64,000 nucleotides of DNA, taken from NCBI GenBank assembly GCA_016125375.1, contig WGLU01000004.1, positions 10,528 through 74,527 on the forward strand, in the 5' to 3' direction. Source of the stretch: Pseudomonadota bacterium. GTDB taxonomy: Bacteria > Pseudomonadota > Alphaproteobacteria > UBA1280 > RI-95. Shown here piece after piece: positions 107 to 44,749 of the stretch (the first letter of the stretch is position 1; each line of letters begins with the position of its first letter). The translations under genes were made by a program, and so were the position numbers. Under the pieces are notes generated by a model that saw only the letters and a program-made list of their open reading frames with translations, was not told where the DNA came from and searched no databases.

Positions 107-694
107 TCAGTCCGGGTTGCGTACCGGCTCGTGGGGCGTGAAAACGACTTCTTCCACCTGCACAATCTCATGCAGATAAACGCGGTCGATACAGGCCTGA
201 ATGTCGGTCTCGTCATAGGCACCGCGCCAGGCGATTTCGTCCTCGGACTGCGGACGCAGGTCGAAGATGCGCAGCCAGCTGGCGCGTTTTTCCGCGTCCG
301 AGGGTTCGCGCTTGTCGGCGTGGACGGCATCGTCCTCGACTTCGGTCAGGGACAGATACCAGCCGTTGAGCACGGCATGAAAGGCATCCAGGCTCGACAG
401 CAGCACGCGGTCGTCCGGCACCTCGATGGTCAGTAGCACATAGCCACCCACATGGTCGCCGTAGCTGTTGACCTCGATGGGTCCGCGGGTGCGGGGGTCC
501 ACCGTCCAGGCCCAGACGGGAAAATCACCGCTGAAGCCGTTCATACGCGCAGCCATGTGGTCGCGCATAAAGGCGTAGCCGCGTTCGAAACCGGGCCAGT
601 CGTCAAAGTTCTGAAAAGTGTGACTGCCGCTCAGATAGCCGCGCACTTGGGCGGCATCCCAAGCGGCACGTGCTTGAATGGAATAGAGACGCAT
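107..694 (-). CDS. DUF3841-like protein (195 aa)
   Basis: In-frame ATG at 694 inside the artefactual 744-aa ORF, with GGAG upstream. MRLYSIQ...FPVWAW...VLLSSLDAFHAVLNGWY matches my memory of the DUF3841 family. C/G-ending codon bias and pyrimidine-rich leader. Confidence 0.65.
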   Translation of the reverse strand: MRLYSIQARAAWDAAQVRGYLSGSHTFQNFDDWPGFERGYAFMRDHMAARMNGFSGDFPVWAWTVDPRTRGPIEVNSYGDHVGGYVLLTIEVPDDRVLLSSLDAFHAVLNGWYLSLTEVEDDAVHADKREPSDAEKRASWLRIFDLRPQSEDEIAWRGAYDETDIQACIDRVYLHEIVQVEEVVFTPHEPVRNPD

Positions 695-847
695 AGGACG
701 CTCCGTCGGAGAAGAGGGAAAAGGGAGTCGGGATGATTTTTTGTATACTATTTTTGAGGCCGCCGCAAGGTTCTGGACAGGGACCAGACCCCGTGGCACA
801 GTTATAAACCTGACGTTAACGACCCGTAAAAATGGAGTGGCCGCGCG

Positions 848-2005
848 ATGGCACAAAGCAATTACCTCTTTACCAGCGAATCTGTTTCCGAAGGACACCC
901 GGACAAGGTTGCCGACCAGATTTCCGATAGCGTTCTTGATGCGTTTTTTGAGCGCGAGCCGGAAGCCCGTGTGGCTGTTGAAACGCTGGTCACCACCAAT
1001 CTGGTTGTGCTGGCTGGCGAATACCGCGCAGCCCACGTGCCGGATGTGGAAAAAATCGCCCGCGAGACCATCCGCCGTATCGGCTACGCCGGCGGCGATT
1101 TTGACCCCGATACCGTAGAAATTATCAACCGTCTGCATGGCCAGTCGCCCGAAATCGCCCAAGGTGTCGATGCTGGCGATAAGAAGGAGGAAGGTGCCGG
1201 CGACCAGGGCATCATGTTCGGTTATGCCACCAACGAAACACCGGACTTTATGCCTGCACCCATCCATTATGCCCACCGGATGCTGGAAGCTTTGGCCAAA
1301 CGCCGTCACGACGGTGACCCGCGCCTTAAACCCGATGCCAAAAGCCAGCTCACGCTGGAATACCGCGACGGTAAGCCTTTCCGTGTGAACACGCTGCTGA
1401 TTTCCCACCAGCATGCAGCCGACTGCAGCCGCGACGAGCTGACAGCCATCGTCCGTAATACAGCAGAGGAAGTGCTGCCCAAAGGGTGGTTTGATGCGGA
1501 TACCCGTGTACTGGTGAACCCTACAGGGTCCTTTGTCCACGGTGGCCCGGGTGCCGATACAGGTCTGACCGGCCGTAAGATTATCGTCGACACCTACGGC
1601 GGTATGTCCCGTCACGGTGGCGGTGCCTTCTCCGGTAAGGACCCGACAAAAGTTGACCGCAGCGCCGCTTATGCAGCCCGCTATCTGGCTAAAAACATCG
1701 TTGCTGCCGATCTGGCGGACTGTTGCGAAATCCAGCTCTGCTACGCTATCGGTGTGGCCGAGCCGCTGGCTATTTATCTGGATACCTTCGGGACCATCAA
1801 AGGCAACCTGACCGAAGACCGTATTGCCGCCGCAATCGGCAAGTCCATGTCGCTGACGCCGAAAGGGATTCGCAGCCATCTGGGCCTGAACAAGCCGATT
1901 TATGCCAAAACCGCCAGCTATGGCCACTTTGGCCGCCAGCCTGAAGGTGACTACTTCAGCTGGGAGCGGACTGATCTGGCGGACGAGATTGTGAAGAATC
2001 TCTAG
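848..2005 (+). CDS. metK: S-adenosylmethionine synthetase
   Basis: N-terminus LFTSESVSEGHPDKVADQISD, GAGDQGIMFGYA and GGGAFSGKDPTKVDRSAAY are hallmark MetK motifs; 385 aa. Confidence 0.97.
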   Translation: MAQSNYLFTSESVSEGHPDKVADQISDSVLDAFFEREPEARVAVETLVTTNLVVLAGEYRAAHVPDVEKIARETIRRIGYAGGDFDPDTVEIINRLHGQSPEIAQGVDAGDKKEEGAGDQGIMFGYATNETPDFMPAPIHYAHRMLEALAKRRHDGDPRLKPDAKSQLTLEYRDGKPFRVNTLLISHQHAADCSRDELTAIVRNTAEEVLPKGWFDADTRVLVNPTGSFVHGGPGADTGLTGRKIIVDTYGGMSRHGGGAFSGKDPTKVDRSAAYAARYLAKNIVAADLADCCEIQLCYAIGVAEPLAIYLDTFGTIKGNLTEDRIAAAIGKSMSLTPKGIRSHLGLNKPIYAKTASYGHFGRQPEGDYFSWERTDLADEIVKNL

Positions 2006-2019
2006 TTCCGGACAAACAA

Positions 2020-2045
2020 CCCCCGCTTCGGCGGGGGTTTTTCTT
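2020..2045 (+). terminator. intrinsic terminator after metK
   Basis: stem cccccgc/gcggggg, loop ttcg, followed by tttttcttt. Confidence 0.8.
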
Positions 2046-2083
2046 TGCTTGCGCTGGATTGCCCGTTGCGGTAAGGGAGGGAC

Positions 2084-2902: not shown

Positions 2903-4321
2903 ATGGCAATGAAACGACGTACCCTTCTTACTGGTGCTGCGGCAGTGGCGGCGGCAGCTGCCCTGAATGCGCCCAAGGCATGGACGCAGGACGTGCCGTT
3001 GCTTGGGGGTGGCAAAGGTGTGCCGCTGCCGTTCAAGCTTTATACCGTTGGCGAGATGGGTGACCTGCTGCGTCCGGCCGACTATGACAGTATGGGGATG
3101 GCTCACCCGGACCTGGGCAAGCTCTCCGTTGTGATTGAGCTGGATATGATGACCCGCAAGGCGCGGTATATGCCCTACCTCATGCCCATCGGGCACTGGC
3201 CGCTGGTGCTGCCGGACGGGCGTATTTTCCTGACATCGCGTTTTTCCAATCAGGGCACTTTCCTCAGTCCCGATGGCGAGGTGCTCAAAACCTTTAAGCT
3301 GGAAGAGTACGCCGCCTTGAACTTTGGCGGCCACAGCATTTACGACGCGCCCCGTAACCGCATTATTTCCACCGTGACCAATGCCGACAATTCGGGCGAA
3401 ATGACGGGCTTTGTGGCGATTGTGGACCCTAAAGAGATGAAAGTGGTGGGCATGGCCCCCGTTCCGGGCACCAATAACAGCCACGAACTGCGGGTTTTGC
3501 CCGGCGGCAAGGAGCTGGTTGTAACCGGTTATGCCAAAAACGGTAACTACGAAGGCCTGACCGACATGGTCAAGGTGGGCTGGAACTTTGCCGATGTCGA
3601 ACGTGCCCAGCTCAGTGTGCTGGATATGGAAACGTTGGAACTCAAACGGCAGTTCACGTCCCCGAACCCCTACACAATGGGGCACATGGATGTGGATAGC
3701 GAGGGGAACGTTTATCTGGAACAGTTCCGTAATCTGGTCTACAAAACGCCGCGCATCACCTCGAACGACGGTGATGACGATGACGATGCAAAAGATACAA
3801 AAGAAACCAAAGACGACAAGCAGTCTGACAAAAAGCGGATGACGACCGAAAAAATGATGGAGCTTGCGGCCCAGTACGAACATGAGATTGGCGGCCCGCG
3901 TACCTGGCCCCTGCACCAGACGGAAACAGCCCAGAAGGGCCTGAGCACGCCAACTGCAATTATGAAAATCAACGCCTATACGGGCGACATTCAGGAACTG
4001 TGGGAAAAGCGGGAGAACCACCGTTACGTCCAGTCGGTCGTCTACCATCCGGATTTGAAGGCTGTTTATATTGCCTCCCGTCACTCGGACGCACTGGTGG
4101 TGTTCCCGACAGACGGCAGCAAACCCTACAGCCGGTCGACGGCTGACTACGGCATTTATACCGCCTGCGGCGTATGCGCGTTCCCGGGTACGCCGTACAT
4201 CGGTCTGCTGAGTAACTACAGCGGTATTGCCATCATCGATGCATCGACCATGAACGCGGTGGATTACTATCCGCTCACCACGTTCCGCTCCATCCACCTC
4301 AATCCGGTACGGATGGCCTAA
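2903..4321 (+). CDS. Tat-signal exported protein, probable beta-propeller (DUF1513-like?), with an internal acidic/Lys-rich insert
   Basis: MAMKRRTLLTGAAAVAAAAALNAPKAWTQ twin-arginine signal; 472 aa. The family call is tentative. Confidence 0.75.
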   Translation: MAMKRRTLLTGAAAVAAAAALNAPKAWTQDVPLLGGGKGVPLPFKLYTVGEMGDLLRPADYDSMGMAHPDLGKLSVVIELDMMTRKARYMPYLMPIGHWPLVLPDGRIFLTSRFSNQGTFLSPDGEVLKTFKLEEYAALNFGGHSIYDAPRNRIISTVTNADNSGEMTGFVAIVDPKEMKVVGMAPVPGTNNSHELRVLPGGKELVVTGYAKNGNYEGLTDMVKVGWNFADVERAQLSVLDMETLELKRQFTSPNPYTMGHMDVDSEGNVYLEQFRNLVYKTPRITSNDGDDDDDAKDTKETKDDKQSDKKRMTTEKMMELAAQYEHEIGGPRTWPLHQTETAQKGLSTPTAIMKINAYTGDIQELWEKRENHRYVQSVVYHPDLKAVYIASRHSDALVVFPTDGSKPYSRSTADYGIYTACGVCAFPGTPYIGLLSNYSGIAIIDASTMNAVDYYPLTTFRSIHLNPVRMA

Positions 4322-4331: not shown

Positions 4332-4362
4332 AAAAAAAGGAGCCCCGCAAATGCGGGGCTCC
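4332..4362. terminator. bidirectional hairpin between convergent genes
   Basis: stem ggagccccgc/gcggggctcc, loop aaat, A-run upstream (T-run for the - strand gene). Confidence 0.7.
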
Positions 4363-4374
4363 AATCGTTTCGGC

Positions 4375-6075
4375 TTAGCGGCGCGAAGCCAGCTCGGCCT
4401 TCAGGTGCGGGACAGCGGCGGTGACGGCCGACAGGACTTCCTGCTTCTGCAGTTCGTCCAGACCGTTCCACCAGTCCTTGTTGACGACGACGGTGGCGCC
4501 CATCTCGATGGTGTTCGGGTCGCCCCAGACGTGCTTCAGGTCGGCGTACTGCTCGTCGTCGGTCTCGGAGGCGGTGTAGACCCGCTTCTCGGTACCGTTG
4601 ATGACGATCTTCGCGTTGTCGAAGTCGCCGTCATCGAACGAGGACAGTTCCAGCTTGAAGCCGAGCGTCTTGGCCATCTTGGCCAGGTCGTTGACCGACT
4701 TGGCACCCGGTGCCACGACCGACAGCATGCACGACACTTCGCTGCGGCTCATGGCCAGCAGCGCGTCCTGCCCGCCCATCGGGACGGTGAGGATGCTCGC
4801 GTAGCTGTCGTCGAGCTTCACCATCTGGTTCCAGGTGTAGTTGGTACCGGAACCGGGCTTGTCGATGGCCAGCACGCCGCCGGAGCGACGCAGAGCCTGG
4901 ATCGAGCCGATGCCATCCTTGCAGAGCAGGTGGGCGTTCTCGGTCAGGACCTGAACCAGCGGCATCGCGTTGACGCCGATGGTGCTGCGCTCGCCGTAGA
5001 GCACGTCGTTCTGCGAGACGCCGATCTGGCACTCGCCGGAGTCGACGCCCGTCAGGATGCTCACCGAACCGGCCTTCGAGCCGAGCTCGAGCACCATGTC
5101 CGGCAACTGGTCCTTCAGGTGACGGCCGTAGGCGTAGTAGGCGCCGCCGGTCGAACCACCGCAGAACTTGCCGTAGACCCGGCCGCTGTTGACGGCCTGC
5201 TCGTACAGCGACGGCGCGCCGTTGGTGGCACCCGCGTTCGCGTCCTCGCCGGTCGAGATTTCCTCGCCCTCGGAGAGCTGCTGCAGGTAAGCCTCGTCGC
5301 CGGCCTGGACCTTGGAGACGTCATAGCCCTTCTGCTGCAGGTACTGGACGGCCTGCGCTTCGGAGATGTTGTTCTGCTGGGCGTAGACCACCCGCTCACG
5401 CGGAGACAGGAGCCAGTACCAGAAGAACGGGTTGTGGTAGATGTAGCCGTAGCCCGGGCTGTAGAAGCCCATGTACGGATAGCCGCCGATCATGTAGCGG
5501 TTCACCGACACGGTACCGTAGCCGCGGCTGACCGTACGGGTCGAGGTGCCGACCGCACGCGGGCGGTTGGTCCCGATGACCGTCTTGGCGCGGCTCTGGG
5601 CCGCACCCACGCGGGCCGTGGTCGGCTTCTGCGCGGTCGGACGGGTCGCGTTGGCACCGGCCGTCTTGCCCGGCTGCGCCTTGAAGGCACCCCCGGTGTT
5701 CGGCTTGTTGGCGCCGCCGTTCAGCGTCGTGTTCGGCTTGGTCGCACCGCCGAAGTTCGGCTTGTTGGCACCGGTGTTCGGCGTGGCCGGCTTGGCCGGA
5801 GTGGTCGGCTTGGGGGCCACGTACGGCTTGCTCGGCGCCGACGGCTTGCTCGGGCTCGACTTGAAGCCGCCGCCGAAGCTCTTGGAACTGCCACCGAAGC
5901 TCTTGGAACCGCCGCTGCCAAACTTGCCGACGAGCTCGATGTGCGCGTCGCCAGTCTGGATGGCCGTGGTGCTGAGCAGGTCGTGGGCGGTCAGGGTGAC
6001 GGCCGCCTCGGCCTGAGTGGAAAGGCACAGCGCCAGCGCGGCCGCTGCCCCAAGGAGAGAGATCTTCACGTTCAT
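4375..6075 (-). CDS. secreted protein: signal peptide, ~190-aa Gly/Ser/Pro/Lys/Asn low-complexity region, Tyr/Gly-rich patch, and a TAXI-like periplasmic binding domain
   Basis: MNVKISLLGAAAALALCLSTQAEA signal. C-terminal GGSTGGAYYAYG...AGSVSILTGVDSGECQIGVSQNDVLYG...KPGSGTNYT resembles TAXI-family TRAP solute receptors. Strongly C/G-ending codons. Confidence 0.8.
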   Translation of the reverse strand: MNVKISLLGAAAALALCLSTQAEAAVTLTAHDLLSTTAIQTGDAHIELVGKFGSGGSKSFGGSSKSFGGGFKSSPSKPSAPSKPYVAPKPTTPAKPATPNTGANKPNFGGATKPNTTLNGGANKPNTGGAFKAQPGKTAGANATRPTAQKPTTARVGAAQSRAKTVIGTNRPRAVGTSTRTVSRGYGTVSVNRYMIGGYPYMGFYSPGYGYIYHNPFFWYWLLSPRERVVYAQQNNISEAQAVQYLQQKGYDVSKVQAGDEAYLQQLSEGEEISTGEDANAGATNGAPSLYEQAVNSGRVYGKFCGGSTGGAYYAYGRHLKDQLPDMVLELGSKAGSVSILTGVDSGECQIGVSQNDVLYGERSTIGVNAMPLVQVLTENAHLLCKDGIGSIQALRRSGGVLAIDKPGSGTNYTWNQMVKLDDSYASILTVPMGGQDALLAMSRSEVSCMLSVVAPGAKSVNDLAKMAKTLGFKLELSSFDDGDFDNAKIVINGTEKRVYTASETDDEQYADLKHVWGDPNTIEMGATVVVNKDWWNGLDELQKQEVLSAVTAAVPHLKAELASRR

Positions 6076-6216
6076 CAGGGATGCTCCCGTTGATGGGGGA
6101 AGGAAAAGCGAAGGAAGGTGATGACGCGCAGCGCGGACGCTACCCGTGGGTTCTAGGGGAAGAAAGCAAGGAAACCTTGCATGAAAAACGCATCGGAAGA
6201 TAGATAATCTGGCGTT

Positions 6217-6244
6217 AAAGTAGGTACTTTGAACGGGATGTCAA
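6217..6244 (-). promoter_or_regulatory. putative sigma70-type promoter of the 4375..6075 gene
   Basis: On the - strand: TTGACA-N16-TACTTT, about 140 nt upstream of the ATG. Confidence 0.35.
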
Positions 6245-12106: not shown

Positions 12107-12138
12107 AAAGGCCCCCGCACTTGCGGGGGCTTTCGCTT
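12107..12138. terminator. hairpin shared by rbfA (+) and the 12148..12522 gene (-)
   Basis: stem gcccccgc/gcgggggc, loop actt, A-run before and T-rich after. Confidence 0.7.
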
Positions 12139-12147
12139 GGGAGGGGC

Positions 12148-12522
12148 TTAAGCCGCATACTCGAGCTTGATCGTAATCGGCCAGTCAAGGTTGTCAATGG
12201 TCGCGACCAGCATCATGATCGTGACCTCCTCCAGCAGGAGCTTGAAAGGCTGGATGGCCTTGTTCAGGTCCTTGATGTCGGCATTGGCCGGAAAGTCCTG
12301 CAGCAGCGCGGCGAGGCGCATGAACATTTTCAGGTTCAGGTCTTCCTGGCTGGCGGCGATGATGGTATTGAACACCAGATCGTCGGTCGGCAGGCCGTGC
12401 ATCTCGGCAGTTTTAATCGCAATAGCGAACCGGCGCCGCGTTTCGGCATCCACACGGACGGAGAAGCGGGCGTTAACAGCTTTCAATAATGTAAGGTCGG
12501 TTATGGGGGTTGGGAGCGTCAT
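12148..12522 (-). CDS. hypothetical protein, paralog A (124 aa)
   Basis: ATG at 12522 with GGAG 11 nt upstream; aligns over its full length with the 12659..13024 product; C/G-ending codons. Confidence 0.7.
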   Translation of the reverse strand: MTLPTPITDLTLLKAVNARFSVRVDAETRRRFAIAIKTAEMHGLPTDDLVFNTIIAASQEDLNLKMFMRLAALLQDFPANADIKDLNKAIQPFKLLLEEVTIMMLVATIDNLDWPITIKLEYAA

Positions 12523-12568
12523 GATAGGTCTTCTCCAGACAGGAAACGGAAAAGATAAATAAGGACCC

Positions 12569-12598
12569 ATAAGTGCCAGTCGTGGGCAGATATGTCAA
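12569..12598 (-). promoter_or_regulatory. putative promoter of paralog A
   Basis: - strand TTGACA-N18-ACTTAT. Confidence 0.35.
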
Positions 12599-12616
12599 GT
12601 TATTCGCACCAAAAGA

Positions 12617-12643
12617 ACAAGCCCCCGCAGTGCGGGGGCTTGT
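12617..12643 (-). terminator. intrinsic terminator of paralog B
   Basis: 12-bp stem acaagcccccgc/gcgggggcttgt, 3-nt loop, T-rich tract on the - strand. Confidence 0.75.
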
Positions 12644-12658
12644 CGTCGTTTGGTGTGG

Positions 12659-13024
12659 TCAGAACTCGATGGTCAGCGGCCATTCCGGCAGTTCGCCGTT
12701 GTGGGCGCGTATCATCAGGGCCTTGACGATGTCGAGCAGCGGCATGACCGGCTGGATGGCGGTGATCAGCTTCAACAGACCGACATCCACCGACAGGTCT
12801 TTGATCAGTGCCACGATGCGGGTGTTGATCTTCAGCAGCAGGTCTTCGGCATCGGTTGCGGTCAGCTTGCGAAACTCGGTATCGTTCTCCGGCATGCCGC
12901 GGGTGCGGGCGATGGAAAGGGCTTCTGCGAACTGGGCCTTGTTGTCGGCGTCCAGCATGGGCGAAAAGCGCGCGTAGGTGACTTCGAGGACCGTCAGATC
13001 GGTCTCGGGCGTCGGGAGGGACAT
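12659..13024 (-). CDS. hypothetical protein, paralog B (121 aa)
   Basis: AAGGAG SD before the ATG at 13024; 49 of 120 aligned positions identical to paralog A by hand alignment. Confidence 0.75.
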   Translation of the reverse strand: MSLPTPETDLTVLEVTYARFSPMLDADNKAQFAEALSIARTRGMPENDTEFRKLTATDAEDLLLKINTRIVALIKDLSVDVGLLKLITAIQPVMPLLDIVKALMIRAHNGELPEWPLTIEF

Positions 13025-13082
13025 GGCAGCTCCTTAAAAGCAGGCGGAAAAGCGTGAAAGCAAGATGGGTAATCTCCCCGCA

Positions 13083-13111
13083 GATTTAGGGTGGGGGGCG
13101 GCGTGTTTCAA
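13083..13111 (-). promoter_or_regulatory. putative promoter of paralog B
   Basis: - strand TTGAAA-N17-TAAATC. Confidence 0.3.
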
Positions 13112-13175: not shown

Positions 13176-14111
13176 ATGGCACGGCGCAAAAAAGGTAACC
13201 CTGTTCACGGCTGGCTGATACTGGACAAGCCCTACGGTATGGGCTCCACACCTGCTGTAAGTTTTGCCCGCCGCGTCTTTAATGCGCAGAAGGCGGGGCA
13301 CGGCGGCACGCTTGACCCGCTGGCCGAAGGCGTGCTGCCCATTGCACTGGGCGAGGCCACCAAAACCCTGCCCTATATTTTAGATGCCGATAAAACCTAC
13401 CGCTTCACCCTGCGTTTTGGCACCGCTACGGCCACAGGGGATGCGGAAGGTGACATCGTGGCAACCAGCGATGTACGCCCGACCGAAGCACAAATACAGG
13501 CTATTCTGCCCCAGTTTACAGGCGGGATTACCCAAACACCGCCCGCCTACAGTGCTCTTAAAATTGACGGCAAGCCTGCTTATGAACGTGCCCGCGCCGG
13601 TGAGACGGTGGAGATACCCAGCCGCGACGTGACCATTTACAGCCTTAAACTGCGCGCCTACACGCCGGAGGAGAGCACCTTCGAGGCTGAAGTCAGCAAA
13701 GGCACCTATATCCGCTCCCTCGGGCAGGATATGGCGGTGGCATTGGGCAGTTGCGGGCACCTGAGCTACCTGCGCCGCCTCAAGGCCGGGCCGTTTGACG
13801 AAAAAATGGCGATTACAAAAGAAACACTTGAAAACTGCCTACAAAATGGGCATAGTCCCCAAACTGTTTTGCACCCGCCCGAAGTGGCGCTGGCCGATAT
13901 CCCGGCCCACACGGCGGATGCCCAGGACAGGCAAACCCTGAAAACAGGCCGAGTACCCGACTGGCCTGGGTTGGCTCCCGGCACGTACCGCGTGCACGAT
14001 AAGGTCAACGGGCAATTGCTGTCACTGGTCAGCATCGGCGCAGATGCGGAAGGGACAAAGCGTATTCTGCGCAATTTTAACTTGGATGAAACGGATATCG
14101 CGAAGGAGTAA
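13176..14111 (+). CDS. truB: tRNA pseudouridine55 synthase
   Basis: [13 protein letters not shown]...[16 protein letters not shown] catalytic-Asp motif. Confidence 0.95.
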
Positions 14112-14386: not shown

Positions 14387-14405
14387 CACTTACCTGCCAC
14401 ACGCT

Positions 14406-14437
14406 AAAAACCCCCGCATGCCGCGGGGGTTTTTTTG
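14406..14437 (+). terminator. intrinsic terminator after rpsO
   Basis: stem cccccgc/gcggggg followed by ttttttt. Confidence 0.85.
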
Positions 14438-14445
14438 TTGCCGTG

Positions 14446-26891: not shown

Positions 26892-26904
26892 CCGAACGAA
26901 ACCG

Positions 26905-28733: not shown

Positions 28734-28747
28734 GCAGGAAGACGCGG

Positions 28748-29470: not shown

Positions 29471-29560
29471 GCGTCTTGGATTTCTTGATGAAATAGGCTA
29501 GACTTTGATGTCCCTTCAAAGTTTGCACGGAACAAACGATAAAACAGGCGGATAGAACCG

Positions 29561-30847: not shown

Positions 30848-30895
30848 GGAGAGCAGGCTGTGTTCCGCAAACAACCTCCAAAGCAAGGTGGGAAT

Positions 30896-31219: not shown

Positions 31220-31245
31220 CAAGCCAGCCGAGAGGACACGAGACA

Positions 31246-32151
31246 ATGGGTATCAGTAAAGATTTGAACTACGCCTACTATCCGGGCTGTGCTGCCAAGC
31301 AGATTCAGAAAGAGGCCGACTGGTCCGCACGCGAAATTTCCAAACAACTGGGCGTCACCCTGCACGATATGCCGGCAGCCACCTGCTGCGGGGCTGGCAA
31401 CCTGCAGGAGCATGATCTGGCTGCGGCGCTGGCTGTGAATGCACGTATTTTCTCGCAAGCGGAAGAGATGGGCATGGATATTGTCACCATCTGCAACACC
31501 TGCCTGCAAACCTTTACCTTTGCCAACGAGCGCCTGAAAAAGGAGCCCGAGCTGCGCGAAAAAATCAATACTGTGCTTAAAAAAGCCGGTGTACGCCCGT
31601 ATGACGGCACAATCGACGTCAAGCACCTCGTCTGGGTGCTGGTTGATGATGTCGGTGTGGAAAAGGTCAAAAAGCAGATTAAAAATCCGCTGGGTGGCCT
31701 CAAGGTTGCGCCGTTCTACGGCTGCCATGCCCTGCGCCCGTCCGAGGTTTTCCACGGTCGTGGCGGTCAGGCGCCCAAGTATCTGGACACACTGATTGCC
31801 GCACTGGGCGGTGAAAGTGTGGACTACAAGGGTAAGGATAAATGCTGCGGCTTCCACTACATGCTGGTGAATGAGAAAGAGTTCCTGAGTATGTCTGGCC
31901 ACCACAGTCTCGAAGCCAAAACCCGTGGCGCCGAAGTGATGGTATCGCCGTGCACCTTGTGCGACATGTCGCTGGGTGCCTACCAGTCCCGCAGCGAGAA
32001 GCATCTGGGTGTTAAAATCAACCTGCCGGAAATGAACATCAGCCAGCTGGTGGGGGTTGCCTTTGGCCTGGACAAGAAAACACTGGGCCTGAACCGGTTG
32101 CACCAGGATGTGCAGCCGGCCCTGCGCGCCCGCAATATCAAAGTGGCCTGA
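31246..32151 (+). CDS. HdrB-like double CCG-domain subunit of a non-classical (type E) succinate dehydrogenase
   Basis: Two C...CCG...CxxC units: YPGC..TCCGAGN..ICNTC and FYGC..KCCGFHY..PCTLC. Confidence 0.85.
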   Translation: MGISKDLNYAYYPGCAAKQIQKEADWSAREISKQLGVTLHDMPAATCCGAGNLQEHDLAAALAVNARIFSQAEEMGMDIVTICNTCLQTFTFANERLKKEPELREKINTVLKKAGVRPYDGTIDVKHLVWVLVDDVGVEKVKKQIKNPLGGLKVAPFYGCHALRPSEVFHGRGGQAPKYLDTLIAALGGESVDYKGKDKCCGFHYMLVNEKEFLSMSGHHSLEAKTRGAEVMVSPCTLCDMSLGAYQSRSEKHLGVKINLPEMNISQLVGVAFGLDKKTLGLNRLHQDVQPALRARNIKVA

Positions 32152-32163: not shown

Positions 32164-32200
32164 AAACAAAAAACGCCCGTCTTGCGACGGGCGTTTTCTT
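32164..32200. terminator. bidirectional hairpin
   Basis: stem aacgcccgtc/gacgggcgtt, loop ttgc, A-run before and T-run after. Confidence 0.8.
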
Positions 32201-32204
32201 ATTG

Positions 32205-32597
32205 TCATCGATTGAGGGTCAGACCGAAGTACAGGTGTTCCGCCACCATACCAACCAGTTTGCAGGTCAGAAACAGGAGCGCGACACTCACTACTGCCGG
32301 TACTGTCTCGATAATCGGCATATCTGTCAGCCAGCCGACCAACAGAACAGCTACGACACCGAGGCCGCCGAACATCATCAGGCCGCAGACGACCACACAG
32401 GCCAGAACCTTCAGGGCGCCGCTGCGGCTGATAGCCCACAGTTTGCGGACCTTGTTCGGGCTCAGGGTGAGCGGGATGAAGACCAAAAATGTCACGGCAC
32501 CGATGATCATGGCCGTGATGTTCTGAGCCGGGTTGGGGCCGATGAACATGATGAATACATTGATCATGTAAATGAGCAGGATGATGGGAGGTAGCAT
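32205..32597 (-). CDS. hypothetical 4-TM membrane protein (130 aa)
   Basis: Four hydrophobic segments; own terminator nearly identical to that of the next gene. Confidence 0.6.
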   Translation of the reverse strand: MLPPIILLIYMINVFIMFIGPNPAQNITAMIIGAVTFLVFIPLTLSPNKVRKLWAISRSGALKVLACVVVCGLMMFGGLGVVAVLLVGWLTDMPIIETVPAVVSVALLFLTCKLVGMVAEHLYFGLTLNR

Positions 32598-32708
32598 GCA
32601 GGTTTCTCGGGGTTGAGAGGGAGCCAGAGGGGTGAAAGTCGGTAAACGGAAAAACTGTCAACTGGCAACAAATATGGGGATGGGAAGGGAATCATCCAAG
32701 CCGGAGGC

Positions 32709-32737
32709 AAAAAAACGCCCGTCATCCGACGGGCGTT
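32709..32737 (-). terminator. intrinsic terminator of the 32750..33157 gene
   Basis: Same stem aacgcccgtc/gacgggcgtt as at 32172-32195, loop atcc; 26 of 28 nt identical. Confidence 0.8.
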
Positions 32738-32749
32738 CGTTATTTTTGC

Positions 32750-33157
32750 TTAGCGCCACAGCCACTGCGGGCGTTTGCGCAGCAGGTACAGCGCAAGAAG
32801 GCGGAAGAGCCCGCCGCTAACAGCCATGGCCACAACGAACAGGCCCATCTGGCCAAGTTCCGCTGCTGGTACCTGATTGGAAGGCGCGAGATACATCACA
32901 ACCGCGGTGATGACGGCAACCGTGGACAGGATGATGTTGGCCATCAGGCACATCAGGGTGCACTGGATGGTCGTCGCCTTGCTGGCGGCCCAACCGGCTT
33001 TGATGGTGTCCTTCGGCAGGCCCAGATAGGTCGCAAAACCCATCAGGCCCAGCAACACGGCAGTAAGGGCAATGTTGACCGCCTCGCTGGTGATGTGGAA
33101 GAACATCGACGCGAAGGTAAAGGCCGTAACGCCCAAAAGGGCAAGCAGGAAGCGCAT
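32750..33157 (-). CDS. hypothetical 4-TM membrane protein (135 aa)
   Basis: AGGAG SD; four hydrophobic segments. The loop LPKDTIKAGWAASK weakly parallels SPNKVRKLWAISR of the neighbouring gene. Confidence 0.65.
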   Translation of the reverse strand: MRFLLALLGVTAFTFASMFFHITSEAVNIALTAVLLGLMGFATYLGLPKDTIKAGWAASKATTIQCTLMCLMANIILSTVAVITAVVMYLAPSNQVPAAELGQMGLFVVAMAVSGGLFRLLALYLLRKRPQWLWR

Positions 33158-33300
33158 GGTTGACTCCTGTGGTGAGGGAGGAATGCGTGTAAATAAAACT
33201 GAAAAAGCAAGACCCTGAGGGGTTGATGAATATCTTCAGACCAGATTTGTATACGATATTTGAGCCGCAGGCAACAAAAACGCCCGCGCTGAAAGGGGGC

Positions 33301-33642
33301 TTAACTCCGCGTGTTCAGGGATTCTGTACGGATGCCGAAGCGTTTTTTTAATTCATTTTCGACCAGGTAGCGTTCTTTCGCGTCCAGAAAACGCAGGGCG
33401 TCTGAACCCAGAATCAGGACCTTCTCCGCCCCTTTGGGGGCGCGTTCAAAGGCCAGTGAGATAGCCCAGGCAATATGAAGACGGCGTTCGTTTTCCTGCT
33501 CGGTAGGCGGCAGGGTTTGCAGGTTGCCGATCATGGCCTGCAAATCATCATCGGTTGCGAAAGTACCCTGCACAGGCAGGAGAGCGTGCTCTGTCCGGCT
33601 GAGATTGACGATGAACGGGGGCTGTTTTTGTGTACTTGTCAT
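33301..33642 (-). CDS. hypothetical protein (113 aa)
   Basis: ORF with backbone-like codon usage. I prefer the ATG at 33642, because 33681 would place the upstream terminator hairpin directly against the start. Confidence 0.5.
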   Translation of the reverse strand: MTSTQKQPPFIVNLSRTEHALLPVQGTFATDDDLQAMIGNLQTLPPTEQENERRLHIAWAISLAFERAPKGAEKVLILGSDALRFLDAKERYLVENELKKRFGIRTESLNTRS

Positions 33643-33681: not shown

Positions 33682-33724
33682 AAAATCAGAAAGCCGAGGG
33701 GGTTGTGCACCATCCCTCGGCTTT
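33682..33724 (-). terminator. intrinsic terminator of the 33737..34249 gene
   Basis: stem aaagccgaggg/ccctcggcttt with T-run on the - strand. Confidence 0.7.
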
Positions 33725-33736
33725 CATCGACTACTA

Positions 33737-34249
33737 CTACTTTCGGTATCCATTACCGGATCCCTTCATCTTGTTGCGGATTTCCTGATCGCGCTGGCTG
33801 CGGTCGCGCTTGCGGGCGGCGGCACGGGCCTTGCTGTCAGGGGCGGTCTTGTTGCCCAGCGGGCTCTTGGCCGGCTCGGCACGGCGGCGCTCGGTGCGCT
33901 GCGGACGCTCAGCCTTGGGCGGCATCACGTCGGCGGGCAGGGGGCGCGCGGGGTCGGCGTTCAGGCTGACGAGCCGGAACGGCCAGTTGGCAGCGCGGCT
34001 GGCGCGGAAGGCCGTCTCACCCGCCGAGGTTCCGAAGAACACGGGCAGGATGACGCGGTCGATGCGCACACCGAGGACCTTCAGTTGCTCGGCGACCTGA
34101 CGCAGGTACTCCGCGCAGGTGGCCTTCATGGCATCCTTGGCGGCGTCCAGCGCGGCGGTCACGGCAACGTCGAGAGGCGCAATGCCGGTGGCCTTGCGCA
34201 GGTCGGCGATCGCTTCGCCATTGCGGGAGGTGTAGAGAAAGTGGGTCAT
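33737..34249 (-). CDS. hypothetical protein with highly basic disordered C-terminus (170 aa)
   Basis: AAGGAG SD; C/G-ending codons; tail PKAERPQRTERRRAEPAKS...ARAAARKRDRSQRDQEIRNKMKGSGNGYRK. Confidence 0.65.
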   Translation of the reverse strand: MTHFLYTSRNGEAIADLRKATGIAPLDVAVTAALDAAKDAMKATCAEYLRQVAEQLKVLGVRIDRVILPVFFGTSAGETAFRASRAANWPFRLVSLNADPARPLPADVMPPKAERPQRTERRRAEPAKSPLGNKTAPDSKARAAARKRDRSQRDQEIRNKMKGSGNGYRK

Positions 34250-34378
34250 ATCACGCTCCTTCTTCGTTTTTTGCTAGAGGCAGGAAACAAAAGAGCGAGG
34301 AAAAGCAGAGGTCAGGAAAGGTGTATACACACTACGACAGGACCCCGGGGGGCTGTCAAGCGCACAAAAAAAGAATCT

Positions 34379-35122
34379 TTAGGCCGTCCGCAAGCGGGGC
34401 CGTAAGTCAGCTGCGATGCGTTTTGCTTCGGCCACCGGGGACAGGGCCTGCGTAATAGGTCTGCCGATAACCAGATAATCGGCACCGGCGCGCAGAGCCT
34501 GCTCGGGCGTCATGACACGGCTTTGGTCGTCGACCATGCTACCGGTGGGGCGGATGCCCGGTGTCACCAGCGTGATGTCACTGCCGAACGCGGCGCGCAG
34601 GGCAGGGGCTTCCACGGCGCTGGCAACCAGCCCGTTCAGTCCGGCGTTTAGGGCTTCTTCTGCCAGGAAAAGGACCTGCTCTTCCGGCATGCGGCCATAT
34701 ATGGCCTGGCACTGGGCAGGCGTCAGGCTGGTCAAGGCTGTCACACCCAGCAGGTGCATCCGTTGCAGGCCATTACGGGACGCGGCTTCGGTCGCGGCAG
34801 TTGTTGCGGCCTTCATCATTTCTGCGCCGCCCGTGGTGTGTACGGTCAGAAAATACGGCTCCAGCCAGCTGACCTCGCGCACAGCGGCGGCAACCGTGTT
34901 GGGAATATCGTGCAGTTTGAGGTCAAGGAACAACGGCAGTTCCTGTTTGTTGACCTGACGAACGCCTTCCGGACCGTGGGCACAGAAGAACTCCAGCCCC
35001 AGTTTTATCCCCCCCACAAACGCAGAAAGGCCGGCCGCAAGAGAGCTTGCAGCCGGCATGTCGTTTGTGTCGAGTGCCACAAAAACTGGGTTTTTGGGTA
35101 ATGTGTTGCGCGTCATGGTCAT
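34379..35122 (-). CDS. pyrF: orotidine 5'-phosphate decarboxylase
   Basis: VFVALDT...LFLDLKLHDIPNTV...VHTTGG motifs. Start at 35122 or 35116, 5 nt after the Nudix stop. Confidence 0.92.
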   Translation of the reverse strand: MTMTRNTLPKNPVFVALDTNDMPAASSLAAGLSAFVGGIKLGLEFFCAHGPEGVRQVNKQELPLFLDLKLHDIPNTVAAAVREVSWLEPYFLTVHTTGGAEMMKAATTAATEAASRNGLQRMHLLGVTALTSLTPAQCQAIYGRMPEEQVLFLAEEALNAGLNGLVASAVEAPALRAAFGSDITLVTPGIRPTGSMVDDQSRVMTPEQALRAGADYLVIGRPITQALSPVAEAKRIAADLRPRLRTA

Positions 35123-35126: not shown

Positions 35127-35729
35127 TTACGGGGTGTTGCGCCCCTCGTCAAATGCCCGGCGCATTTTGCGGTACTCGCCGTCGAAGGCCATTTCGCCCT
35201 TGGCGTACATGGCGTCCAGAGTGGCCACGTCAGCAAAGACGAAATTGTGCATTTCATCGGTTTCGACCAGCTGGTCAACCTCGTCATCGGTCAGATGATA
35301 GACGTACGTCACCCCGACCTGCGCCATGTCGCGCAGTTCGTAGATGTCGCCGTACCACATGTTCATGTTCAGCAGGTTTGCAGCGGTGAACTTGGCGGGG
35401 TCGAGGCGGATGCCCGTTTCCTCCCAAACCTCGCGCACGAGGCCGGTTTCGAAGGTTTCGCGGCGTTCCATTTCGATAAATCCGCCGATGCCGCTGTACT
35501 TGCCGTTGGCATCGAGCATGTTGCGGCGCTGGCCGATGAGCAGTTTGCCCTTGTGGAACAGCAGAACGCTGGCCGACAGGCCCGCATGCTGCCACCACGA
35601 CAGGTAACCGATTTTACGCCCGTAGAGCAGGTAGCCTATGGACTGGATGATTTTGTAGCGCAGGTCGGTGCGCTTGAGGGCTCCGAACCGCCCGAGCAGG
35701 CGGTTGACCCATGTGCGTTTGTTGGACAT
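35127..35729 (-). CDS. Nudix hydrolase
   Basis: Nudix box GGFIEMERRETFETGLVREVWEETG. Confidence 0.87.
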   Translation of the reverse strand: MSNKRTWVNRLLGRFGALKRTDLRYKIIQSIGYLLYGRKIGYLSWWQHAGLSASVLLFHKGKLLIGQRRNMLDANGKYSGIGGFIEMERRETFETGLVREVWEETGIRLDPAKFTAANLLNMNMWYGDIYELRDMAQVGVTYVYHLTDDEVDQLVETDEMHNFVFADVATLDAMYAKGEMAFDGEYRKMRRAFDEGRNTP

Positions 35730-35919
35730 GGGGATAATCCCGGTAAAAGAGGGGTAAAAGTGACAGAAATCCGAAGATTCGGGATGAAAAAGAAACGGGA
35801 CTTAAAGGTCAAACAATAGCCCGAGTATAAAAACACCGGGCAGCGCTGGCAAGCATATGCGCCAACAATCGCTGCTGCATTGCGCAAAAACGGTTCACCT
35901 CGCGGCCTAAAAGGCGTAA

Positions 35920-39154: not shown

Positions 39155-39445
39155 ATGGCCAAGGGTAAGCGTCAGGGAGGACGTGTCATTAGCAGACGTT
39201 TCGAGGTCCGTATCTATAATGCCCGCGTACGCGAGCTGCTGGAGCACGGGGAAACAAATAATACAGGGTTGAGTGACCGCTGGGCCGATGCGGTGTATGA
39301 AAGTATTATGGCGGCTTCGCCGCAGGAAGCTGTAAAGCTGATGCGTCAAAAGTTCCCGCCTGCACAGGGATTTGTGGTCACTAACGTGCTTCTTGTGACC
39401 GAGACGGGTGTGCAGGAAATCAGAAAACACGAATACGAGAGTTAG
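39155..39445 (+). CDS. hypothetical small basic protein (96 aa)
   Basis: ORF only; AT-richer than its surroundings; no recognisable motif; weak SD. Confidence 0.45.
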   Translation: MAKGKRQGGRVISRRFEVRIYNARVRELLEHGETNNTGLSDRWADAVYESIMAASPQEAVKLMRQKFPPAQGFVVTNVLLVTETGVQEIRKHEYES

Positions 39446-39626
39446 TTTTTTTACCCCCCGTCAGTTGTCTGTCAGCTGACACCTTTGTGCCCCCCTCCAT
39501 ACGGAAGCAGATGTTCTGATGGGAAATGCAAATCCCCATCGGGGACCACCTGCAATCTTTTCCTATCTCACATCTCCTCCGGCGCGAAAGCGCTCCTTTT
39601 CTGTTCTAGCTGAGGGAAGCTAAATC

Positions 39627-39788
39627 ATGATGACCATCGAAAACTCCGCCGACTTCGTCGCTCTGTCGGGCTCCGGCTCCATTCGCTGCCACAGCGGCAG
39701 CGGTTCGATCAAGTGCAGCGGTTCCGGCTCCGGCTCCATCAACTGGGGTGGCTCCGGTTCCTCCCCCCTCTACGGCAGCGGTTCGTAA
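39627..39788 (+). CDS. 53-aa Gly/Ser-repeat peptide MMTIENSADFVALSGSGSIRCHSGSGSIKCSGSGSGSINWGGSGSSPLYGSGS
   Basis: Not in the ORF track (<60 aa). GAGGGAAG SD 7 nt upstream; + strand-specific terminator 39 nt downstream; pyrimidine-rich leader and C/G-ending codons like the other inserts. Confidence 0.6.
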   Translation: MMTIENSADFVALSGSGSIRCHSGSGSIKCSGSGSGSINWGGSGSSPLYGSGS

Positions 39789-39826
39789 CCACAACACACC
39801 CGACCGCTCCACAAGCGAGAATCGAG

Positions 39827-39860
39827 ACCCCGGTGCTTAGGCACCGGGGTTTTGTTATTT
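39827..39860 (+). terminator. intrinsic terminator of the peptide gene
   Basis: 10-bp stem accccggtgc/gcaccggggt, loop ttag. The T-run is on the + strand only, so it does not serve convergent truA. Confidence 0.8.
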
Positions 39861-42962: not shown

Positions 42963-43891
42963 GTACGCTTCTCGTTCTGGCCGAACATAACGGCACCACC
43001 CTTGCGCCCAGCTTTGCCAAACTGATGGGTGCCGCAGTGGCGCTGGGCAAAGCCACAGTGCTGGTATGCGGTAAAGGCGCCAAAGCCGTTGCCGACGACG
43101 CAGCGACCTATCAAGGTGTGGAAAAAGTCCTGTATGCCGAGCATGACAGCTTCGCCCGCCCGACTGCGGAGGCCCTGTGCGAGATGCTGGATGCCCATGT
43201 TGGCAGTGCACAGTACGTGCTGGCCGCAGGCAGCAGCTACAGCCGTGGCGCACTCGCCCGTTTCGCTGCCCGTAAAGGCGCCGTGATGTTGAGCGACGTG
43301 CTGGCCGTAGATGGCCCCACCAGTTTTACCCGCCCCATGTACGCAGGTGCGGTAAATGCCAAAGTGGACGTGCCGGCAGGTTTGACCGTACTGACCGTCC
43401 GTGCAACAGCCTTTGCGGAAGGCTCCAAAGGCGGCAACGCCGCTGTTGAAGCTATCGCAGCCGTACCCGCCAAAGTGGCCAATGCCAGCGTGGGTGTGGA
43501 ACTGACCAAATCCAGCCGCCCCGAGCTGGGCAGCGCCAAAGTGGTTGTTTCCGGTGGTCGTGGCCTCGGCTCCAAGGAAAACTTCAAGATTATCGAGGAT
43601 CTGGCCGATGCGCTGGGTGCTGCCGTCGGCGCTTCCCGCGCGGCGGTGGACGCAGGCTATGTGCCCAACGACCTGCAAGTGGGGCAGACCGGTAAGGTCG
43701 TCGCGCCCGAGCTGTATGTGGCGGTGGGTATCTCCGGCGCGGTACAGCACCTGGCAGGTATCAAGGGTGCCAAGACCATCGTTGCTATCAACAAAGACCC
43801 CAATGCCCCCATCTTCAAGGTGGCTGACTACGGGCTGGTGGGTGATTTGTTCGAGATTATCCCCCAGTGGTCCGGCAAGGCCAAAGGCTAG
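42959..43891 (+). CDS. etfA: electron transfer flavoprotein alpha subunit
   Basis: Overlaps the etfB stop; [10 protein letters not shown]...[21 protein letters not shown] motif. Confidence 0.95.
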
Positions 43892-43903
43892 GGGTACCGC
43901 ACG

Positions 43904-43940
43904 AAAAAAGGCCGGACATGTGTCCGGCCTTTCTCGTTTG
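43904..43940. terminator. bidirectional hairpin
   Basis: stem ggccggac/gtccggcc, loop atgt, A-run before and T-rich after. Confidence 0.75.
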
Positions 43941-44549
43941 TTACAGCTCGTTTGCGACGGTGGCCGCAAGGGCGCCGTCCAGCATGCTGGCGTATTTGCT
44001 GCGAAAGCCCGTGGCCGTGCAGTAGAACTGCACTTCCCAGATGGTGCCCGTGGCCAGAATGGCCGCACGGTCCACCACTTCGTCAGCATCGGTGAAGCCG
44101 CAGCCTTCGGTGACAAAGTCCTCGAGCGTGTTCCAGTTAGTACCGTCGCCAGCGACGCGGTAGTCGTTGGCGTGGATGCATAGGCCACCCTTGCAGGCAG
44201 CCAGCAGTGCGGCGATCGCCGTGTCCACATCCGGCTGGTCCGTCAGGTCATCGGCACCGAGCAGACGTTCTTTGCAGGCTGTGAGCAGCGTCGTCAGGTC
44301 GCCGGCGACCATGTTGTGCAGACGGTTGCCGTTATCGATGACGTAGAACTCGAACAGGTGGCCCTTGCGGAGAATCTCGTCCTCCGGCTCCAGCAGCTCC
44401 GGTTTCCACCAGAAGGTGGGATTACGGGCCTCTGCCAGTCGCTCTTCCAGCGTCTGGAAGCAGGATGGATGCTCGTCGGCCGTCAGATGAAAGGCCGTGT
44501 TGGGGGTGAACTTGCACGCCAGGGCGGCAAGGATTTGGGCGTTGGTCAT
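43941..44549 (-). CDS. hypothetical Cys-containing acidic protein (202 aa)
   Basis: ATG at 44549 with GGAGG SD; C/G-ending codons; no recognisable motif. Confidence 0.65.
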   Translation of the reverse strand: MTNAQILAALACKFTPNTAFHLTADEHPSCFQTLEERLAEARNPTFWWKPELLEPEDEILRKGHLFEFYVIDNGNRLHNMVAGDLTTLLTACKERLLGADDLTDQPDVDTAIAALLAACKGGLCIHANDYRVAGDGTNWNTLEDFVTEGCGFTDADEVVDRAAILATGTIWEVQFYCTATGFRSKYASMLDGALAATVANEL

Positions 44550-44749
44550 AACGACCTCCGGTTTGGGGGAAGAAACGGGTAATCGAACGATGGTACTGAA
44601 ATCGCCCAAGGAATGTTGGTACACCGGCCACGACCTGCAAGGGGATAAAGGTGTTTATTCTGTTTTTGCGTTTTCCCGTGACTTTGGTACACTTTTGATG
44701 CGCCGCATCATTGGTGGCCCAAACAACCCTTAAACAGGAAGATTTTTCC

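Follow-up and report, generated by a model that had tools for sequence, protein, structure and literature searches.

The window analysed here, a 64,000-nucleotide stretch of contig WGLU01000004.1 (assembly GCA_016125375.1), is a chromosomal alphaproteobacterial segment of 58% GC. Between its conserved operons lie about 15 small genes, mostly of unknown function, which share a pyrimidine-rich 5′ leader, a codon usage distinct from that of the surrounding genes, near-consensus −35 boxes and strong terminators. Leader composition and codon usage rise together from gene to gene, and both are maintained at the same positions in related genomes. They appear to constitute a conserved class, defined by expression or regulation, as opposed to mobile or recent inserts. 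They had been described in an original prediction as a dispersed family of inserts of one or two genes at thirteen loci, and all 14 of its open reading frames were found as given; the class as counted here includes an M48 peptidase gene that we have added.

The backbone genes of the window are metK, rimP-nusA-ylxR-infB-rbfA, truB-rpsO-pnp, the gene for ETF-QO, asd, an SDH-like cluster, pyrF, mdh-sucCD, truA-fmt-def, etfBA, hbd and a heparinase-like gene. Genes were called with a self-trained codon model and corrected against the gene calls of the contigs themselves. Logan contigs of the same organism, called independently, give the same products (195, 566, 124, 121, 157, 160, 130, 135, 170 and 200 aa). 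The 3.7 kb and 3.3 kb by which the contig was extended contained no more members of the class.

The lineage is known from a handful of samples or metagenomes only, and proteins identical to those of the window are recorded from a single sequencing run, SRR10063242. By way of mdh, the nearest species-representative genomes among the matches listed are AT-rich metagenome-assembled genomes of 40–45% GC, with at most 72% identity. Closer relatives were found via homologues of the products of 43941 and 12659 (genes without another name are called by their first coordinate) and of pyrF. They comprise L084 (GCA_964351835.1, GC 52.7%), covering the 43941 homologue, etfAB, def, fmt and truA; L085 and L086 (Logan SRR35925438 and SRR30649435, GC 62%), covering metK to the GNAT gene; L087–L089 (JGI 3300045921/2 and Logan SRR30649436, GC 63%), covering mdh to asd; and L090 and L091 of species E (Logan ERR13967250 and ENA ERZ23491158, GC 52.5%), covering def to asd. 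At 77–94% backbone identity, L084, L085, L087 and L090 span about 10 points of genomic GC (52.5–63%).

The transcription units

The first unit (68–748, −) has its terminator at 68–91 and a DUF3841 coding sequence at 107–694. The CU-rich leader, from 695 to about 740, contains CTTTTCC at 717–723, and a GTATACA box lies at 742–748. This gene is the weakest member of the class, with a GC content at third codon positions (GC3) of 0.74. The highest GC3 in the class, 0.91, is that of 4375–6075 in the unit at 4339–6244 (−), which has a terminator at 4339–4362, a leader of roughly 130 nt that includes CTTTTCC (6102–6108), and a −35 box TTGACA at 6239–6244. Its secreted product has a signal peptide, a TAXI/NMT1_3-like domain and a low-complexity stretch with abundant Gly, Ser, Lys, Pro and Thr, which is encoded by DNA with 24-nt tandem repeats (5696–5875).

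Between rbfA and truB are two adjacent units on the minus strand. One (12111–12598) encodes a 124-aa ORFan at 12148–12522, with a terminator at 12111–12130, TTGACA at 12593–12598, and CTTTTCC at 12548–12554, which pairs with the Shine–Dalgarno (SD) sequence GGAGAAG. The other (12616–13111) encodes a 121-aa paralogue at 12659–13024 (GC3 0.85) with a terminator at 12616–12644, CTTTTCC at 13046–13052 and TTGAAA at 13106–13111. The two proteins of this tandem pair are 41% identical, and their L085 orthologues diverge unevenly (80% as against ~37–45%). The AlphaFold model of the 121-aa family is helical, with a pLDDT of 85, and has no fold match in the PDB.

The M48 peptidase unit (16851–17946, −), with every trait of the class though absent from the original list, consists of a coding sequence at 16851–17852 with GC3 0.83 and a strong SD, AAGGAGG, preceded by CU tracts at 17893–17914 and 17926–17946 that include TTTTCC at 17936–17941; its terminator at 16820–16847 is common with pnp. 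In a two-gene unit (22601–23700, +), TTGACA at 22601–22606 and a CU-rich leader at 22641–22686 precede 22707–23180, encoding a transmembrane protein with a Pro/Ala-rich region, and 23180–23662, encoding a 160-aa ORFan; the terminator is at 23672–23700. The unit for a 115-aa secreted protein (24830–25337, +) has TTGAAA at 24830–24835, CTTTTCC at 24880–24886, the coding sequence at 24952–25299 and a terminator at 25318–25337.

In the deoC unit (26015–26933, +), the coding sequence 26106–26891 and terminator 26906–26933 follow an upstream region with TTGACA at 26015–26020, TGTATACA at 26044–26051, TTTTCC at 26054–26059 and CTTTTCC at 26069–26075. Its promoter lies inside the 3′ end of an uncalled gene at 25376–26035 (+), between the 115-aa gene and deoC, which encodes a membrane protein of about 219 aa, 41–49% identical to proteins of 205 and 206 aa at the equal position in L087 and L090. 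With a backbone GC3 (0.67) and no CU leader, this gene serves as a negative control.

Two units for membrane proteins stand side by side on the minus strand. The first (32170–32661; 130 aa, 32205–32597) has a bidirectional, shared terminator at 32170–32197, TTTTCC at 32648–32653 and TTGACA at 32656–32661. The second (32713–33254; 135 aa, 32750–33157) has a terminator at 32713–32738, a CU leader at 33171–33211 and GTATACA at 33248–33254. They form the second of two tandem pairs (12148–13024 and 32205–33157), and their terminators are 93% identical, which implies that whole promoter–gene–terminator units have been duplicated. The unit for a 170-aa ORFan follows (33690–34359, −; coding sequence 33737–34249, GC3 0.85), with a terminator at 33690–33724, CTTTTCC at 34299–34305, TGTATACA at 34322–34329 and TTGACA at 34354–34359. 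The NUDIX gene (35127–35729, in the unit 35127–35852, −) is the first of a NUDIX-pyrF operon (pyrF, 34379–35122); upstream of it are CU tracts at 35742–35762 and 35781–35799 and a conserved promoter, TTGCCA-N17-TATACT, at 35824–35852.

The unit for a 53-aa Gly/Ser-repeat peptide (39470–39854, +) begins with a palindrome, TGTCAGCTGACA, at 39470–39481, followed by a hairpin at 39516–39542, CTTTTCC at 39557–39563 and a second hairpin at 39581–39593. The SD is displayed in the loop of a further hairpin (39606–39622), and the coding sequence at 39627–39788 is closed by a terminator at 39823–39854 which shows compensatory changes in species E. Within this leader region are the hairpin CUGAUGGG-N11-CCCAUCGG and two exact CU blocks. 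The peptide is made of GSGSIx(C/F/W) repeats and has a homologous locus at 600–1040 (−) of L090. In-frame indels and synonymous changes with respect to species E indicate that the gene is truly coding, and its leader of about 115 nt is more conserved than its protein. In its richness in Gly, Ser and Cys the peptide is reminiscent of the precursors of modified peptides, though genes for modification are not found next to it. The last unit (43907–44579, −) encodes a 202-aa ORFan at 43941–44549, with a CU tract at 44565–44579 and a terminator (43907–43932) common with etfA.

Whilst the products of deoC, NUDIX-pyrF and the M48 gene are ordinary enzymes, ten members of the class have no match in Pfam, PHROG or NCBIfam, and a PHROG search of the members gave nothing above noise. 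ORFans without assigned function include those of 160 aa (23180–23662), 170 aa (33737–34249) and 202 aa (43941–44549). The 170-aa protein has only three relatives among 1.84 billion representative proteins. The view of the original prediction that this is a lineage-specific set holds for most members.

In the 64 kb there are five sites of the palindrome (T)GTATACA, about two matches being expected by chance with both strands counted. Four of the five lie just downstream of an inferred −10 box, namely those of the DUF3841 (742–748), deoC (26044–26051), 32750 (33248–33254) and 33737 (34322–34329) units, and the element is kept in relatives upstream of deoC and of the 170-aa gene. It could be an operator or a 5′-end element.

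Promoters and terminators

There are seven intergenic TTGACA boxes in the window. Six are upstream of and in the sense of listed genes (22601, 26015, 34359, 32661, 12598 and 6244), the seventh precedes tRNA-Gln, and TTGAAA is found upstream of 24952 and 12659. The good −35 boxes that had been claimed for the class are thus present. The −10 boxes of the class are non-canonical, and a scan with an E. coli-type promoter model recovers that of the NUDIX gene alone. Backbone promoters have a different look, TTGnnn-N16-CTATAGT. The EcfG-type stress promoter (GGAAC-N16-17-CGTT) has two matches in the window, both in coding regions and equal to the chance number; with none upstream of members, it was rejected as the signal of the class.

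Strong hairpins with a T-run follow 12 of the 13 units. The NUDIX unit has no terminator of its own because pyrF starts 4 nt downstream. The terminators at 32170–32197, 43907–43932 and 16820–16847 are shared with convergent backbone genes, and hairpins of the CCCCCGC type seen in the class also terminate metK, rpsO and pnp. Terminators private to each unit, as originally proposed, are therefore found in part only: they are strong almost throughout, one is missing and several are shared. The further proposal that the units are not raw foreign DNA is borne out by these native-looking promoters and terminators. A strong hairpin with T-run of the CCCCCGC family also lies in the rpsO-pnp gap (14403–14438, +), where it is probably the rpsO terminator or an attenuator in the pnp leader.

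The leaders

Read in the sense of its own gene, the leader (−70 to −16) of class members has a pyrimidine fraction of 0.70, compared with 0.53 for other genes (p = 1.5e-6), in agreement with what had been predicted. When all 42 window genes preceded by a gap of 75 nt or more are taken together, the pyrimidine content of the leader correlates with the GC3 of the coding sequence (Spearman 0.72). Since the correlation spans all 42 genes, the link is independent of the way in which the loci were originally selected. The inferred leaders are 40–130 nt long, most of them 40–70 nt, and adjoin strong SDs: the energy of the SD:anti-SD duplex is −7.2 kcal/mol in the class and −4.0 kcal/mol in other genes (p = 0.001). 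Their composition is C 0.34, G 0.14 and U 0.37, YC dimers are at 0.24 vs 0.09, and the folding energy of the leader alone is −5.9 kcal/mol vs −10.7 kcal/mol for others (p = 7e-4).

The motif CTTTTCC is present in 8 of 14 class leaders and in none of 27 other leaders. Dinucleotide shuffles of the class leaders are expected to give 0.92 positive leaders, and not one of 500 shuffles reached eight. In the window as a whole the motif occurs 19 times (9 expected), eight of these within sense leaders of class genes. The shorter TTTTC is found in all 14 orthologue leaders (8.4 expected from shuffles) and is positioned between −27 and −71 relative to the ATG; CTTTTCC itself is usually no more than about 25 nt away from the inferred transcription start. 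TTTTCC is absent from three class members. In a comparison with the covariance models of Rfam 15, tRNA-Gln alone passed the gathering score, and no sub-threshold hit fell within the class leaders. Avoidance of RNase E sites was also considered and rejected, as RNWUU occurs at 34 per kb in the leaders vs 28 per kb and is not lower.

We calculated partition-function folding of the regions −60 to +20 and −70 to +35 at 20, 37 and 42 °C. The probability that the SD is paired is 0.54 in the class and 0.52 in the backbone (z = −0.36 with respect to shuffled leaders), and the energy needed to open the ribosome-binding site is 9.8 vs 8.3 kcal/mol (p = 0.11). Between 20 and 42 °C the opening energy changes by 4.6 kcal/mol in the class and 4.0 kcal/mol in the backbone (p = 0.11), whilst the pairing probability is nearly flat. 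An SD-sequestering or thermosensing leader, put forward originally as the mechanism of the class, is not supported by this folding, which shows no differential effect of temperature. The fourU and ROSE elements are RNA thermometers that sequester the SD; a thermometer of this kind was rejected as a class mechanism, SD pairing and melting being equal to those of backbone genes and shuffles. Pairing between a CT block and the SD is clear in 12148 and present in 22707 and 33737, so that the pairing once claimed more widely is a feature of individual leaders and not of the class.

Codon usage

The listed genes have a GC3 of 0.81 (0.74–0.91), compared with 0.67 (0.55–0.83) for the other 47 genes of the window (Mann–Whitney p = 6e-8), at equal GC content in codon positions 1 and 2 (0.536 vs 0.533). 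The bias towards C/G-ending codons is therefore real; that two-fold degenerate codons are "almost always" C/G-ending is too strong a statement, because the fraction is 0.74 vs 0.58 in other genes, exceeds 0.8 in just four genes, and GAA still has a share of 44%. Third-position A falls from 0.13 in other genes to 0.05 in the class and third-position C rises from 0.38 to 0.49. GGG (0.06 vs 0.13, p = 0.002) and TTG (0.04 vs 0.10, p = 8e-4) are depleted and CCC is not raised, so that the shift is not one of uniform GC pressure; plain GC pressure or biased gene conversion was rejected on this ground.

Codon choice was also scored along a leave-one-out axis between backbone genes presumed to be highly expressed (rpsO, sucCD, mdh, nusA, infB, pnp, etfAB, sdhA, metK and the 96-aa gene at 39155–39445) and weakly expressed (truA/B, rbfA, rimP, rlmN, the GNAT gene, trmB, fmt, def and others). 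On this axis, whose division into high and low expression is drawn from general knowledge, the class scores +0.030, close to the highly expressed set (+0.039) and away from the weakly expressed set (−0.070; p = 2e-4 for class vs weak set). The outcome is unchanged if the score is restricted to choices between G/C-ending codons. There is a second, class-specific axis, on which AAG is used for 82% vs 38% (p = 1e-22), ACA for 4% vs 21%, and ACG and TCG are raised; it is not shared by rpsO or by the presumed highly expressed set. ORFans of these same neighbourhoods without a CU leader show backbone GC3 (25376–26035, as above; 33301–33642, 0.60; 2903–4321, 0.70; also 49152–51080), and ORFan status or fast evolution alone therefore does not explain the codon shift. 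Together, the codon, leader and motif statistics bear out the idea that these genes form a distinct, non-random class.

Conservation in related genomes

Orthologues of 12148/12659, the M48 gene, 24952, deoC, 33737, the NUDIX gene, 39627 and 43941 are found at equal positions in relatives of 52–63% GC. At least nine members are positionally conserved, and synteny holds in four relatives. The 43941 orthologue in L084, with 63% identity, is in the same position, the 33737 gene is duplicated in L087, and the NUDIX gene adjoins mdh even in the distant relative L002. The sole member missing at a syntenic junction is 4375–6075: in L085, rimP and the gene beyond it are separated there by 171 nt (13789–13961). 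L002 has no GSGS mini-gene (39627), and 57 nt separate truA from the gene that follows sucD. We found no flanking direct or inverted repeats, integrases, attC-like sites or mobility genes around the units; only the terminator hairpins recur. The description of the loci as inserts or mini-cassettes is not upheld, given that orthologues hold the same positions and that repeats and mobility genes are absent.

The linked traits are conserved along with position. In every relative, leaders of orthologues have pyrimidine fractions of 0.65–0.80 vs 0.35–0.65, their genes exceed the GC3 of their own backbone by 0.07–0.31, and leader pyrimidine content and GC3 are correlated over 33 genes of four related loci (Spearman 0.77). 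The M48 orthologue in L085 retains a GC3 of 0.85 and a leader pyrimidine fraction of 0.69. Orthologues of 33737 have GC3 values of 0.85, 0.89–0.95 and 0.89 where the backbone is at about 0.67, 0.78 and 0.55, respectively. Persistence of the excess despite differing backbone GC3 is a sign of a gene-specific force that is still acting, as opposed to an effect of history. Between species the promoter boxes are kept and the leader sequence turns over while remaining pyrimidine-rich, as in the NUDIX and deoC units. In the 39627 leader, CTTTTCCTATCT and CTTTTCT are unchanged between species, the hairpin loops differ, and the terminator carries its compensatory changes.

Other features of the window

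The SDH/FRD-like cluster at 26922–32151 (+) is atypical, with genes for a flavoprotein, a rhomboid protease, an Fe-S subunit with an Ala/Lys-repeat N-terminus, an SH3_3 protein and a CCG-domain subunit; this order is kept in L087 and L090. The true start of the flavoprotein is probably the ATG at 27027, behind a promoter of its own, TTGGCC-N18-TATACT. sucCD is without sucAB downstream. In species E, sucD and the 87-aa gene are separated by a gene for a PAS histidine kinase/response-regulator hybrid, and truA has an ion-transport gene beside it (L090, 1368–3530; L091, 2170–2988). Since these extra genes are absent from the window, the junctions are prone to rearrangement.

Interpretation

The explanation that we favour, with somewhat less than even confidence, is that the class consists of strongly expressed, self-contained transcription units in which the unstructured CU-rich leader would be a platform where ribosomal protein S1 and the 30S subunit load. 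Each unit would be driven by a promoter of sigma70 type whose −35 box is near consensus (TTGACA or TTGAAA, like that of tRNA-Gln), giving a C/U-rich, G-poor leader of 40–130 nt that is predicted to be almost unfolded and usually contains CUUUUCC. The single-stranded pyrimidine tract upstream of the SD would let the 30S subunit land or stand by through S1, and the tract and the strong GGAG-type SD together could give efficient initiation of translation. The bias to G/C-ending codons would be the matching adaptation on the side of elongation, and an efficient intrinsic terminator would close each unit. We favour strong expression because the tracts co-occur with consensus −35 boxes, strong SDs, codons like those of presumed highly expressed genes, and efficient terminators. 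S1 is reported to contact pyrimidine-rich regions of 5′ untranslated regions (PMC4288201), and a single-stranded pyrimidine tract (70% pyrimidine, unfolded) is found right upstream of the SD. It is from such features of the DNA that we infer high expression, S1 or standby binding, and selection behind the GC3 excess.

Several points weigh against this explanation. The ORFan members evolve fast, with 37–66% identity to their orthologues compared with 77–94% for the backbone, and such fast change is commoner among weakly expressed genes. The gene lowest in GC3 (0.55) is rpsO, the one gene for a ribosomal protein in the window, and it uses AAA, so that the usage of the class (AAG 82%, ACA 4%, third-position A 5%) is not simply that of highly expressed genes, and the expression axis has the general-knowledge basis described above. 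The model also leaves unexplained both the specific enrichment of CUUUUCC and the second codon axis: S1 is not known to prefer CUUUUCC, though the motif is enriched beyond the composition of the leaders. Finally, CU-rich or anti-SD-like tracts that repress are documented in E. coli and B. subtilis (PMC12691595, PMC12697547).

It is possible, though doubtful, that the CU leader is instead a negative element, which would make expression conditional by loading Rho for premature termination or by competing for the SD. A 16-nt CU tract is the determinant of Rho loading (rut) in the E. coli cfa leader (PMC12691595), and anti-SD-like pyrimidine k-mers repress through pairing with the SD (PMC12697547). 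The C-rich, G-poor, YC-rich and unfolded leaders of the class have the sequence character of Rho sites, and their composition would suit S1 and Rho alike; CUUUUCC is able to pair with GGAGAAG or GGAGGAG, as in the three leaders named above. Against Rho, most leaders, at 40–70 nt, are short in comparison with a rut site of about 80 nt, for which some 70–80 nt of RNA free of ribosomes would be expected, and they abut strong SDs, so that initiating ribosomes would cover them. Against competition for the SD, its predicted occlusion is that of the backbone and of shuffled leaders. Consensus −35 boxes, strong SDs and a codon choice like that of presumed highly expressed genes likewise point to expression and not to silencing.

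A post-transcriptional regulon is, in our estimation, rather unlikely. Here an RNA-binding protein (of cold-shock type, or with KH or S1 domains) or a purine-rich small RNA would read CUUUUCC and so co-regulate stability or translation, and the codon usage would reflect a dedicated translational state. Co-regulation through the leader, part of the original prediction, becomes more plausible with the enrichment of CUUUUCC over shuffled leaders and the conservation of TTTTC in orthologues. The invariance of CTTTTCCTATCT and CTTTTCT beside variable loops in 39627, the usual placement of the motif close to the inferred transcription start, and the second codon axis, which is foreign to the presumed highly expressed genes, are also in keeping with it. 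On the other side, there is no candidate regulator or small RNA in the window and no Rfam match, elsewhere the leaders conserve composition and not sequence (NUDIX, deoC), three members have no TTTTCC, and the functions of the members are heterogeneous.

A still less probable extension is a second expression programme across this uncultured lineage as a whole, in which fast-evolving small proteins marked by CUUUUCC near the 5′ end, as in a bacterial counterpart to eukaryotic 5′TOP mRNAs, would be written in a separate codon dialect (avoiding A-ending codons and preferring AAG, ACG and TCG) and read by a dedicated factor or tRNA state, leader and codons jointly gating translation. It stays alive because the favoured model does not account for the motif enrichment and the second codon axis.

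Recent foreign cassettes, of phage moron or integron-like type, from a GC-richer donor and not yet ameliorated, are very improbable and already largely refuted. The deviant composition, the possession of promoter and terminator, the mostly ORFan products, the absence of 4375–6075 from the L085 junction and the empty 39627 junction in L002 would fit such an origin. Against it are the synteny in four relatives, the equal GC of codon positions 1 and 2, the lack of repeats, integrases and attC-like sites, terminators of the backbone family, and the avoidance of GGG and TTG as in native genes presumed to be highly expressed. Moreover, the GC3 excess is kept over backbones of about 0.55–0.78, where amelioration should have erased it. 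Equally improbable, and already disfavoured, is the absence of any common function, by which young, weakly constrained genes would drift to a mutational or gene-conversion equilibrium of GC3 and the likeness of their leaders would be due to compositional chance, amplified by the way in which the loci were selected: the ORFan members do evolve fast and the loci were picked by these very traits, but the correlation covers all genes, leaderless ORFans remain at backbone GC3, GGG and TTG are depleted, the motif exceeds its shuffled level, and the traits are kept in orthologues.

Comparison with known systems

Pyrimidine-rich leaders, codon-usage classes and autonomous promoter–gene–terminator units are each known; in this lineage they come together in one discrete, maintained class. 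We regard the class as a variation on known leader-based expression signals, in which an oligopyrimidine leader is coupled to distinct codon usage. The linkage holds over about 10 points of genome GC, which implies selection on the 5′ leader and the synonymous sites together. The class thus offers a testable handle on the co-tuning of leader composition (through S1, Rho or another factor) and codon choice in bacteria, and singles out about ten conserved ORFans whose products are probably well expressed and important in the lineage.

S1-type pyrimidine tracts upstream of the SD are found in E. coli ssb, in the RNAs of phages Q-beta and fr, and in cyanobacterial rbcL. The class resembles them in having an unstructured pyrimidine tract 15–70 nt before the start, by the SD and with strong expression signals. 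It differs in that the tract is C+U-rich and not U- or A/U-rich, contains CUUUUCC, and marks a discrete subset of genes with a shift in codon usage. With the rut tract of E. coli cfa (PMC12691595) it shares a short, CU-rich, G-poor tract that is accessible unless sequestered, whereas the cfa leader exceeds 200 nt and is controlled by small RNAs, and class leaders are mostly below 90 nt with a strong SD adjacent. The complementarity of CUUUUCC to GGAG-type SDs, with G–U pairs allowed, and the 9-bp helix in the 12148 leader recall anti-SD elements (PMC12697547). Unlike such elements and RNA thermometers, the class has the predicted SD pairing, opening energy and temperature response of the backbone.

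Phage morons are promoter–gene–terminator units of deviant composition inserted between conserved genes. The class is similar in its mostly single-gene units with their own promoter and terminator, deviant GC3 and location in gaps of the conserved gene order (such as the rbfA–truB gap, where they run on the opposite strand), and unlike them in being chromosomal, positionally conserved across species, maintained in its composition offset, and free of mobile context. Codon-biased stress regulons, such as the mycobacterial DosR regulon with its ACG bias, consist of modification-tunable transcripts, and eukaryotic terminal oligopyrimidine (5′TOP) mRNAs carry a 5′-proximal oligopyrimidine element. 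By analogy, the class recalls both, being set apart by its synonymous codons (AAG, ACG, TCG and few ending in A) together with a 5′ oligopyrimidine tract.

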